From NCBI RefSeq assembly GCF_055900595.2, contig NZ_PP320290.1: 63,589 nucleotides of DNA; one strand, given 5' to 3'. A program made the position numbers. This document shows positions 21,001 through 24,000 of the stretch, piece after piece (position 1 is the first letter of the stretch; the number at the start of each line of letters is the position of its first letter). The DNA is from a plasmid.

Positions 21001-24000
21001 AAACGTGCAGCAGCTGGACAGTCGTGCTGAGCTGACCGGAGATGAGATCAGTGCAATTCAGAAACTGGCCGCGGACAGTTCTCGGACCGACATTTGATGA
21101 AATGAATAAGGATATACAAAAGGAGCCCAACTGGTGAGGAAGGGCTCCTTTTAATTACTAGACGTTTTTACTACTTAACTTTCTGTCGGAGTAAACGGAA
21201 AATTAATTTGTTAATCACTGTCAGTATAAGTACCCGATAAACGTGGTGCAACTCCGTATCAGAAATTACCGCCAGTGCTTGAATCCAGCGCCCTGAACAG
21301 GGCTTCATGAGCGGCATCCAGAAGGCGTCCAGGCAGAAGGACATCATTCACGCGGTAACTCTGACCGTTCTGTGTGGTCACGGTGAGGTAATATTGATCG
21401 TCAAACTGCCTATCGGCACCGATATGCACAATGTTGGACGTGTCGATCCAGCACAGGTTTGTGCCTTCCACAGGATGAAGAGGTTTGATTCGGCCTTTCA
21501 GCCATTTCTGCGGGCGTCCCGGCCAGGATTTAATGGTAATGCCGTGCTTATAGTCGCGGGTTCTGGCCACAAAGGCCGCTACTTTATCTTCATCCATCTC
21601 TTTTGCTGAGGTGTTCTCCTTGAAGTAGTACGGATTGAGGTTGTATTGCAGCTCTTCAAATAGCTTCATATACGTCACCTGATCATCCAGGCTTTCCCCC
21701 TGATTTTTCAGGCTGCTGCCCCAAACTTCTTCCAGATTGGCTTTCAGCGCCAGCGTGACCGCCTCAAATTCTTCCTGATGTTTATCGTAGTAGTTGATAT
21801 CCATCGCGTCTCCTGTTGTGTTTATGGCGAATTTGCGGAAATAATATACATAAAAAATGTTCAAATATGAACATTTTCAGGCTATAAATACAGGCAGATT
21901 ATAACAGGCCAGTCCACCAGGATTCGGCCAGGAGCTGAGTACGCATGATAAAGAAACCACTTATTGCCGGCATCATGCTGGTTGTGGCGCACACCGCCGG
22001 CGCTGCGCAGGTTGATGATACCAATCTGCAGCAGATTTATACCGAGGCGGGCATTCAGGGTATATGCAGCGCCGGGATGCTGGCTGTGCCGGAAGGGGCC
22101 AGAGATGAAGTTGTCCCGCAGAACGTCAGACACCTCCTGGTTCAGTGTGCCTATTTCGACGAGCAGCAGTTGCGCCGGCGTGCCGGCCTTCCGGCTCAGA
22201 CATTTAGCCACTGGCGTGACCGCAATGCGGTCCTTAATCTGTCGTCTGACCAGGTATCTGATGCGCTCTGGCTGTCAGCGTGGCGTGATTTCCGGGCACA
22301 ACTGGCCTCGGCCTACCCGGCCCCGGCGGAAAAAAAGGCACAGGGGAAAGAGGCCGTACCCGCCGGCACGAAGCCCGGCACTGAGCATGGGAGTGCGGCG
22401 GATTGACCGGCTTTGACTTGATCCTGTGGCGACGGGGCCTGAACTGGACCCAGGAACGCGCCGCGGCTGAGCTCGGTATCAGCCGTACCAGCCTGGTAAA
22501 ATATGAGGACGGTGAGACAGTACCCCGGACCATACAACTTGCCACCGTCGCGCTGACGCTGAAAGCGGAATGGCCCACCCTGAAAACCATGAGCAAAGAC
22601 AGGCTGCTGCGGCAGCTGAAGTATGAAGTGCTGAGGATCGATAATGAATGAGTCCATCCATGTTGTCGGCTCTTTTATCCTTGCGGGTATCCTGCTGTAT
22701 GGCCTCTGGCAGGGTACACGGCGACGCCGGCGCCGGCACGAACGGAAACAGGCCAGCGCGGTACGTGTGATCGATAAAATTAATACGTTTCCGCATTTCG
22801 GGCAGAAAATTGCCTATCTGCGCAAGATTGACCCGTTTGTGTTCGAAGAGCTGCTGCTTGAAGGCTTTGAACGCCGGGGCTTTGAAGTGATCCGTAACCG
22901 CCGGTATACCGGTGACGGCGGGATTGATGGCCGTGTGAAGATTGATGGCCAGACCTGGCTTATCCAGGCCAAACGCTATACCAGCTATATTGCCGTTGGC
23001 CACGTCCGTGACTTCAGCGACCTGCTGAACGCCACCGGTGCCCGCGGTTTTTTCTGCCATACCGGCAAAACGCGCGAAGGCACCAAATCGCTCATTCGCG
23101 GAGACAGCCGCATGATCCTGGTCAGTGGCCAGAAGCTGCTAGACCTTATTGCCACCGATGCGCCGTTTATCCCGTATCCGGGATACCGGCCACCGACCGA
23201 AATGGTTCATCCTGAACAGGAGACAACATGAAATTCAAAGGATACGTCGCCGCCCTGCCGGCACTGCTGCTGACAGGGTGCGCCATGCTCCCCGGACAGC
23301 CCACCGATTATGACCGCTTCTGTAACGTCTCAGGCATCGCCAGCCACGGCGAAACCTACCGTGTCAGTGACAGCCAGGATTTCTGGTTAACCCCGAACGG
23401 CCGCTATCTCAGCCAGGCTGAGTACAGCAGTCCGGCAGATACGCTTCAGAAACTGACGGGCGTGGTCAGTGGTGAAGATCCTGACCAGGTGCGGAAGAAC
23501 GCCGTCAGGGTAAGGGTGTTCCGCGTCGAGAGTGAAAACAGCCATAAAGGTGCGTGCCTGCCTGTGCGTTATGACGATAATGGCGCACAGCGTAAAATGG
23601 ATTCACTGACTAACGGCCGCCGTATGGTGGTATTCAGTGAAGATGAAGGTCAGTCTGGTCAGCAGATTTACAACAAAAGTCGTGGTACAGGATTCAGTTA
23701 CAGGTTGTTATGAGTGGATTGAAAGGCCGCCGAATCAGCGCGGATATGTTTGCTATGATGTTAAAAGTATCTGCCGGGCAGCTGGTTTTTGCAGCCCGGC
23801 ATGACAAGCCTTTACGCGGACTGACCCTACCCCCTTACAGAATCGAAGGCGGGAAAAGCTGGAGCTCGACCGCCTCCACCCGCAGTATGACGTTTGATAT
23901 GCAGGATGCGGTCGAATTCAGCGAGAAATTTCATAAAATTCAGTCGCCTGACGGCTGATTAGCGGATTTTAAAAAATTGAACACTTTCCCCCTGCAAATT

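Follow-up and report, generated by a model that had tools for sequence, protein, structure and literature searches.

The DNA analysed here, NZ_PP320290.1, is a complete IncL plasmid of the pOXA-48 type (63,589 bp, the window in what follows), and it carries two copies of one palindrome, TGTTCA-N4-TGAACA, which we call O1 and O2 and which would both be operators of a single small regulator encoded beside O1, the 82-aa XRE-type helix-turn-helix (HTH) protein Orf20. On this reading, to which we would give a probability of about 0.65 on the strength of sequence comparison, a dimer of Orf20 would bind O1, where it would repress its own operon, and O2, where it would control the genes orf32-ssb-orf33. 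The two sites, read directly from the sequence, are:

21854-21877, no strand: O1, AAAATGTTCAAATATGAACATTTT, a perfect 24-nt palindrome, AAAATGTTCA-AATA-TGAACATTTT, with its core at 21858-21873
37216-37231, no strand: O2, TGTTCATATTTGAACA; with one flanking A (ATGTTCA-TATT-TGAACA) it occupies 37215-37231

The pair is real and lies far above chance expectation. An earlier note on this DNA had placed the two sites where direct reading finds them and, having looked by eye, had seen no third; a pattern search of the whole plasmid with up to one mismatch indeed returns two matches, both perfect (21858-21873 and 37216-37231), with no one-mismatch copy, against an expected count of 0.13, and two matches were attained in only 1 of 100 shuffles. 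The arms TGTTCA and TGAACA occur in the plasmid with no other spacer of 0-12. Read on the opposite strand, the O2 16-mer matches the O1 core exactly (17 of 17 positions if one flanking A is included), where 2.6e-5 further exact copies would be expected in 63.6 kb. As a look-elsewhere control, recurrent palindromes with 6-bp arms were counted, and 12 kinds were observed vs 0.45 in Markov simulations; the others lie mostly in or beside the duplicated IS10A/IS1B insertion sequence (IS) region, and the remainder are GC-rich 12- to 14-mers or G/C-rich sequences resembling terminator stems (35067, 37579), so that the TGTTCA pair is the sole AT-rich recurrence having both copies intergenic and outside IS elements. 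The 16-mer was found in no paper in a literature search. The segment around O1 (20800-23200, 2.4 kb) is 100% identical to many records of the same length from Klebsiella, E. coli and Enterobacter (e.g. NZ_CP034283.1, with coordinates offset by 12).

The evidence that ties the palindrome to Orf20 comes from its homologues, in which the operator travels with the clade and changes with the recognition helix. Every homologue examined that has the helix ISRTSLVKYE (70-99% identity, in several unrelated contexts) has a perfect TGTTCA-N4-TGAACA upstream. O1 is identical at 24 of 24 positions in IncL plasmids, in IncM (~90% local identity), in p24A19015 (88%) and in p142_B (83%), as well as in IncFII/MPF_I plasmids of Klebsiella, whose flanks are only ~78% identical, which are devoid of orf19 and the nuclease gene, and whose HTH protein is 93% identical; in p3s1 and the IncFII/MPF_I plasmids the palindrome lies ~70 bp upstream of the HTH gene itself. 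The homologues at 70-79% identity, taken from a large protein collection and from representative genomes, all keep the helix, and in every case a perfect palindrome with AAA/TTT flanks stands upstream of the operon, with the spacers TATC, ATAG, TATA or GATA and in surrounding DNA that is non-homologous: a Cronobacter plasmid with a psiB-type leading region, a plasmid of Erwinia amylovora, Erwinia aeris, a parA-korB metagenomic plasmid and other contigs.

A sister clade, with 30-57% identity to Orf20 and the helix (S/C)LR(T/S)(Y/W)K, occurs mostly near the origin of transfer (oriT), in leading regions of plasmids of IncI, IncK and related type. At most of its loci the sequence (A)AGTGCA-N5-TGCACT(T) stands ~33 nt before the start codon, frequently with a second copy 56-67 bp upstream, where the Orf20 clade has a single palindrome; a few loci have variant operators or none that was detected. 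The half-sites of the two clades are related, (A/T)GT(G/T)CA, with GTnCA in common. The operator therefore co-varies with the recognition helix across the homologues, which is the pattern expected of a protein that binds its own upstream palindrome, and the earlier suggestion that one dimeric regulator, the 82-aa XRE HTH, would link the two sites thereby gains comparative backing: that Orf20 would recognise both O1 and O2 as a dimer is well supported by these comparisons.

Since the choice of loci through the HTH gene is more circular than a choice through its neighbour orf18, loci were also selected by orf18 (L numbers are those of our collection). Two of these, L177 and L180, have the whole module, HTH and operator included. 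In a third, L178, an IncFII-type contig of E. coli (DASBRQ010000012.1), orf18 is kept at 70% identity and the HTH gene and the operator are both gone, the homology to the IncL/M promoter stopping inside the -10 hexamer at ~3950-4000; orf18 can thus exist outside the control of Orf20.

The protein itself belongs to the expected class. Orf20 matches HTH_3, HTH_19 and HTH_31 in Pfam (PF01381 HTH_3 at residues 9-51 with 31.4 bits, cutoff 23), with weak sub-threshold matches to the RstR, MqsA, HipB and DicA models. Its AlphaFold2 model has helices at 3-12, 17-24, 28-35, 45-55 and 57-60, with an extra C-terminal one at 65-81, and would place the recognition helix at 28-35, although the mean predicted local distance difference test score (pLDDT) is only 67.8; profile and model together indicate an XRE/Cro-C1 protein, a five-helix bundle in which helix 3 would be the recognition helix. 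Foldseek returned only XRE proteins, as weak and generic matches (E >= 0.1), and phmmer against the PDB sequences (E <= 1) gave three hits and no more, all of them unrelated chains of XRE type at E >= 0.1.

O1 lies between two divergent genes, 21259-21804 (-) and 21945-22406 (+), and over their predicted promoters. The features of this neighbourhood are:

21860-21888, + strand: predicted promoter of the orf19-orf20-nuclease operon, with -35 TTCAAA (21860-21865) inside O1, a 17-bp spacer and -10 TATAAA (21883-21888); read from the sequence
21843-21871, - strand: predicted promoter of orf18, with -35 TTCATA (21871-21866) inside O1, a 17-bp spacer and -10 TATATT (21848-21843); 9 of 12 matches in the promoter scan
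21259-21804, - strand: orf18, 181 aa, divergent from the HTH operon (an open reading frame (ORF) call); it accompanies the operator in several lineages
21945-22406, + strand: orf19 (DNDJGHEP_0013), 153 aa, overlapping the start of orf20 by 4 nt
22403-22651, + strand: orf20 (DNDJGHEP_0014), 82-aa XRE/Cro-C1 HTH protein (Pfam HTH_3), the proposed repressor at O1 and O2
22644-23231, + strand: orf21, Mrr_cat (type IV-like) nuclease (Pfam Mrr_cat, 8e-21; PADLOC mREase_IV), overlapping the stop of orf20
23228-24717, + strand: a 161-aa ORF, an 82-aa ORF and a resD-type tyrosine recombinase, on the same strand downstream of orf21

The orf19 promoter was missed by the consensus scan because it has no T at -7. 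In an alignment of 10 lineages a -10-like hexamer (TATAAA, TATATT, TATAAT, TAAAAA or TGTAAA) begins exactly 9 bp past the right arm, and a TTCAWW -35 box thereby falls within the operator at a 17-bp spacer; wherever a complete orf18 exists, a mirror-image -10 (TATATT or TACATT) stands 9 bp beyond the left arm. At that mirror position NROB and E. amylovora, both without orf18, have a poor match or nothing, and in p3s1, where a remnant is all that is left of orf18, a weak candidate persists. The palindrome thus overlaps the predicted core promoter of the regulator's own operon and, with the predicted -35 boxes and a portion of the spacers of the two back-to-back promoters inside O1, one dimer would occlude both.

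The names orf20 and DNDJGHEP_0014 come from Baffert et al. 2025 (PMC12365149) and Calvo-Villamanan et al. 2025 (PMC12361523), respectively, two independent studies, one by transposon (Tn) sequencing and the other by CRISPR interference (CRISPRi), both of which found that the plasmid is not maintained without orf20 and state that its targets and mechanism are unknown. Tn insertions in the gene are depleted, it could be deleted only when a copy was supplied in trans, recipients of the deleted plasmid became elongated and then lost it, and silencing by CRISPRi led to plasmid loss, with polarity acknowledged by the study authors themselves (PMC12365149, PMC12361523). Deletion of orf19 was harmless, and its low Tn counts were ascribed to polarity on orf20 (PMC12365149). 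Harm on loss and rescue in trans are as expected of a repressor of harmful genes. As CRISPRi is polar, guides against orf19 or orf20 should also block the nuclease and resD, and the plasmid is lost despite this, so that the harmful target would lie outside that transcript, in orf18 or in the unit behind O2. Two things speak against this: L178 keeps orf18 with neither operator nor HTH gene, and deletions of orf32, ssb and orf33 are all viable (PMC12365149); the harm would then arise only from over-expression.

The second site lies in the leading region, 18 bp beyond the stop codon of a 94-aa gene (the one after klcA), with 30 bp left to the -35 box of a cassette promoter, and among the nine cassettes of this region the palindrome precedes cassette 8 only. 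The features behind it are:

37262-37290, + strand: cassette-8 promoter, TTGATA-17-TATAAT; 11 of 12 matches in the promoter scan
37218-37245, + strand: possible weak promoter embedded in the operator, with -35 TTCATA (37218-37223), a 16-bp spacer and a -10-like TAAAAA (37240-37245), in the layout seen at O1
37352-38446, + strand: the unit downstream of O2, orf32 (73 aa, 37352-37573), ssb (37645-38079) and orf33 (38135-38446)

These three genes are a predicted operon in which Tn insertions are enriched after conjugation, and deletion of orf32 raises transfer 1.87-fold (PMC12365149). In an alignment of seven variants none of the 16 palindrome columns varies, whereas 19 of the 48 other intergenic columns do (Fisher p = 0.0013), and the full 16-mer is present in 1,124 PLSDB plasmids, in segments of 80-100% identity; the conservation in related plasmids on which the proposal of a common regulator had been staked is accordingly found at O2 as it is at O1. 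Exactly two perfect sites, in the O1 and O2 slots, were found in the whole of p3s1 and in the 45 kb scanned of the 59 kb of p142_B. Behind O2, p3s1 encodes diverged orf32 and orf33 proteins (31% and 35% identity) and has no ssb, which makes orf32-orf33 the conserved target; the cassette-8 promoter does precede both the 73-aa ORF and ssb, which the earlier note had taken as the pair driven from it, and of that pair ssb is the member missing in one lineage.

If we accept this evidence, the following steps could be proposed: (i) a dimer of Orf20 would sit on TGTTCA-N4-TGAACA, whose half-site centres are 10 bp apart, one helical turn; (ii) at O1 a single dimer would silence both orf18 and the orf19-orf20-nuclease(-resD) transcript, which would amount to negative autoregulation; (iii) O2 would put orf32-ssb-orf33 under the control of Orf20, most likely as repression, either through silencing of the weak promoter embedded in the operator or through disturbance of the upstream (UP/alpha C-terminal domain) region of the cassette promoter; and (iv) in a newly entered cell, devoid of Orf20, both units would be expressed until the regulator had built up. 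The earlier interpretation would therefore be largely right, though supported only in part, the uncertain portion being the regulatory outcome at the second site.

Several observations weigh against this proposal. Most loci were gathered through Orf20 homology, which makes the association partly circular, and the conservation of O1 could in part be that of promoter function, because the -35 boxes lie within the palindrome. In Photorhabdus luminescens (PUWW01000113.1, L179 3935-3950) a perfect AAATGTTCATATATGAACATTT precedes, by 66 bp, an orf18 homologue of 61% identity, with no Orf20-type HTH gene within the 5.7 kb available. A metagenome scan for AAATGTTCA-N4-TGAACATTT, which speaks neither for nor against the proposal, gave at least 120 loci, and among those listed an HTH gene is present in 7, all of them close relatives of the IncL/M type, the remaining listed loci being unrelated contigs with a median GC of 38%. 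At O2 the seven aligned sequences are not independent, and all the plasmids that have the site share the surrounding segment at 89% identity or more; relative to the start predicted for the sole strong promoter candidate, O2 is centred at about -74, and it does not overlap the promoter core; and the candidate embedded -10 stands in an A-rich tract at a variable offset (8-10 nt past the arm in the seven variants, although in pKPC_CAV1741 it is a TATAAA at 9 nt), so that it may be due to chance. Finally, only the IncL/M and IncFII/MPF_I lineages have the second site, and the Cronobacter plasmid, complete at 80 kb, has just one, from which it would follow that self-regulation is ancestral and O2 a lineage-specific extension.

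The position of O2 gives room to an alternative, since with a centre at about -74 simple steric repression of the cassette promoter is not obvious; the claim of a palindrome at two promoters thus stands for O1, which holds predicted -35 boxes, and falls short at O2, where the cassette core is left free. Orf20 could therefore bind O2 in another capacity than as a simple repressor of the cassette promoter, namely by activating from upstream, by stopping read-through from klcA-orf31 as a roadblock or insulator, or through an effect confined to the weak promoter, with little consequence for ssb. The untouched -35 and -10 of the cassette, the O1-like arrangement TTCATA-16/17-TA(A/T)AAA at O2, and the fact that no terminator stands between orf31 and cassette 8, where terminator-like GC-rich stems with T-runs precede two other cassettes, would all fit such a role; on the other hand, the loss of an activation could not explain the requirement for orf20, given that deletions of orf32, ssb and orf33 are viable, and the family members seen here all resemble repressors with the operator over the promoter, with nothing that points directly to activation, for which reasons we consider it unlikely.

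A rather less probable alternative accepts O1 as a real operator and takes O2 for a functionless copy that rides on a recombining cassette. It could appeal to the confinement of O2 to the IncL/M and IncFII/MPF_I lineage, to the strong promoter that it does not overlap, and to a mosaic, recombinogenic leading region in which the regulatory region is ~95% identical and orf32 and orf33 only 31-35%. Such a copy should not, however, be invariant in seven variants amid intergenic sequence that changes, nor be kept whole in 1,124 plasmids across that span of identity, and Orf20, where present, would be expected to bind a perfect operator.

It is less likely again that Orf20 is merely a neighbour and that the palindromes are bound by something else, whether a host protein or another plasmid protein such as Orf18, Orf19 or a 90-aa HTH protein (17837-18109). 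The Photorhabdus locus, with operator and orf18 and no HTH gene nearby, would favour such a binder, as would the outer bases of O1 (AAATGT...ACATTT), which are like the flanks of a CRP site. To our knowledge, the core is without the TGTGA of a CRP site and fits none of the LexA, FNR and ArgR boxes, a comparison that may serve as a lead. Against another binder, the operator tracks the HTH gene into contexts that have no orf18, orf19 or nuclease (p3s1, E. amylovora), it becomes AGTGCA-N5-TGCACT exactly where the recognition helix changes, in L178 it was lost together with the HTH gene while orf18 stayed, and the operator of the plasmid's other small repressor, KorC, is different.

That the palindromes are nucleic-acid hairpins (a terminator or a single-stranded transfer signal) or recombination sites can be dismissed, for although a hairpin of 10 bp is predicted at O1 (-8.4 kcal/mol, z = -5.9) and the leading region enters recipients single-stranded, O2 folds no better than shuffled sequence (z = -1.3), the two sites have only the 16-bp core in common and not the hairpin extension, no terminator-like site was detected at either locus, a terminator would be pointless at O1 because the genes diverge there, and a 4-bp spacer is too short for the core of a tyrosine-recombinase site.

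By function, the closest analogue of Orf20 would be ArdK of R388. ArdK, in IncW R388 and IncN pKM101, is an autoregulated repressor of Pssb and of other establishment promoters, with a transcriptional overshoot on entry into the cell (PMC3937220, PMC9723621). Like the proposed Orf20, it is a small plasmid repressor with negative feedback on its own operon, which includes ssb, and it also acts at establishment and leading-region promoters from operators at or overlapping the -35 box (PMC3937220, PMC9723621). The differences are that ArdK belongs to the KorA family, with no detectable sequence relation to the HTH_3 protein Orf20, that it recognises direct TTGACA repeats, GTATTGACACCTATTGACA, and not an inverted repeat with a 4-bp spacer, and that it controls five promoters, whereas here there are two sites only. 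Although crystal structures of ArdK exist (PMC9723621), they are absent from the PDB matches of Orf20 in the phmmer search (E <= 1).

KorC, known from IncP RK2 and IncU RA3 and with a homologue in pOXA-48 (29867-30133), is likewise a small plasmid repressor with a palindromic operator in its own promoter, and its loss also destabilises pOXA-48 (PMC12365149, PMC12361523). Unlike Orf20, it is encoded by a separate gene of the same plasmid and has the operator TAGGAC-AAAAT-GTCCTA, which is found at 29304-29320, between the -35 (TTTACA) and the -10 of the orf24-korC promoter, and which Baffert et al. reported as unique on pOXA-48 (PMC12365149). With this different palindrome at its own promoter, KorC was set aside as the binder of O1 and O2; the pCTX-M3 regulators orf35 and orf36 are different genes with no DNA-binding motif and are irrelevant here.

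The C proteins of restriction-modification systems (C.Esp1396I, C.BclI) recall the proposed Orf20 repressor: they are XRE proteins of ~80 aa, their genes run into the start of a nuclease gene, and a palindrome at their own promoter mediates autoregulation; there is also a weak structural resemblance. They differ in that here no methyltransferase is adjacent, HTH and operator persist in lineages without the nuclease, and a single palindrome takes the place of paired C-boxes, besides which a further copy of the site stands far away from the nuclease gene. Two copies are frequent in the sister clade, but with 56-67 bp between them they do not form the tight OL/OR pair of C-boxes. Phage repressors of the Cro/CI type (434 Cro, P22 C2) and XRE antitoxins (HigA, HipB) share with the proposed Orf20 repressor the fold class, binding as dimers to AT-rich palindromes (~16-24 bp) and the overlap between operator and promoter, but their similarity to Orf20 is only generic (E >= 0.1 with Foldseek and with phmmer against the PDB). 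No recognisable toxin gene was found beside orf20 with Pfam, NCBIfam, PADLOC and PHROGs on orf18 and orf19; the nuclease of orf21 could be harmful, yet it is absent in some lineages.

What the comparison describes is a system of a known kind, an autoregulated XRE repressor with a small regulon, and what would be new is an explicit regulon for a regulator on which the maintenance of a clinically important plasmid depends, pOXA-48 being described as the main vehicle of OXA-48 carbapenem resistance (PMC12365149). The operator pair would define a concrete regulon of two sites, made up of orf18, the orf19-orf20-nuclease operon and orf32-(ssb)-orf33, from which comes a short list of candidate harmful genes, and it makes the regulon of Orf20 directly testable. 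In IncI- and IncK-type plasmids the leading regions contain related HTH genes accompanied by palindromes of their own, which suggests a broader family of regulators. More tentatively, as a possibility that we hold to be rather doubtful, Orf20 and its sister clade could make up a hitherto undescribed family that regulates the leading region and establishment in MOBP/MPF_I plasmids (IncL/M, IncI, IncK and IncFII hybrids), equivalent in function to ArdK but of XRE ancestry and with clade-specific dialects of the operator, (A/T)GT(G/T)CA, orf20 being needed to restrain a harmful orf18 or orf32-(ssb)-orf33; on that reading, O2 would link expression at the time of entry with the stable maintenance of the principal OXA-48 carbapenemase vector.

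As regards the sister clade, its HTH genes are found at loci L009, L011-L013 and L024-L055 (e.g. L013 2900-2986; L027 5908-5988) of IncI-, IncK- and IncFIB-type, some on contigs labelled or sized as chromosomal. Some loci have extra operator copies at 0.8-5 kb, and in L041, L042 and L052 one such copy stands ~220 nt before a conserved 77-aa ORF. In the metagenomic set, low-GC unrelated contigs (L069, L098, L112 and L117; JAAHTG..., Ga0114938...) have a pair of AAATGTTCA-N4-TGAACATTT copies at a distance of exactly 164 bp, which appears to be a repeated element of some other organism. In Photorhabdus the orf18 homologue adjoins biosynthesis genes of the siderophore type.

Around O1, the start codon of orf20 is TTG and overlaps the stop of orf19 by 4 nt (22403-22406), and the end of orf20 shares 8 nt with the beginning of the Mrr-type nuclease gene (22644-22651); from these overlaps, translation would appear to be coupled along orf19-orf20-orf21, in agreement with the polarity reported for insertions in orf19. 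p3s1 and the lineages of Cronobacter, Erwinia amylovora and metagenome k141 lack the nuclease gene and all retain HTH and operator. Neither Orf18 nor Orf19 has a match in Pfam, NCBIfam, PADLOC or PHROGs, and the structure model of Orf18 (pLDDT 64) gave only weak PH-like matches. The block from orf18 to resD had been called a GC-rich accessory block, a description that does not hold, as it is conserved IncL/M backbone and its GC of 54-58% is a modest excess over the plasmid mean of 51%.

In the leading region, the boundary of the mosaic between pOXA-48 and p3s1 (window 37150-38446 vs L008 7505-8315) falls at the start codon, the stretch from O2 through promoter and leader being ~95% identical. 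The nine near-identical cassette promoters of this region (26983-38515) have their cores at 27003, 28521, 32780, 34083, 34875, 35370, 36345, 37272 and 38497, each with a TTGATT-like -35, the invariant spacer GGCTCATTAGACG and TATAAT, and most are followed by a conserved leader of ~60 nt that ends in GGTAGCGCCCCGACTGGCGCAGGAGT immediately ahead of the start codon. One possibility is that the invariant spacer serves as a further operator; it could also belong to an RNA or translation element. Cassette 8 alone (37248-37287) has an extra arm, ACGTCTGATGAG, which pairs with the spacer sequence CTCATTAGACGT and so brackets the -35 box, and which as single-stranded DNA would fold with -10.7 kcal/mol (z = -7.0).

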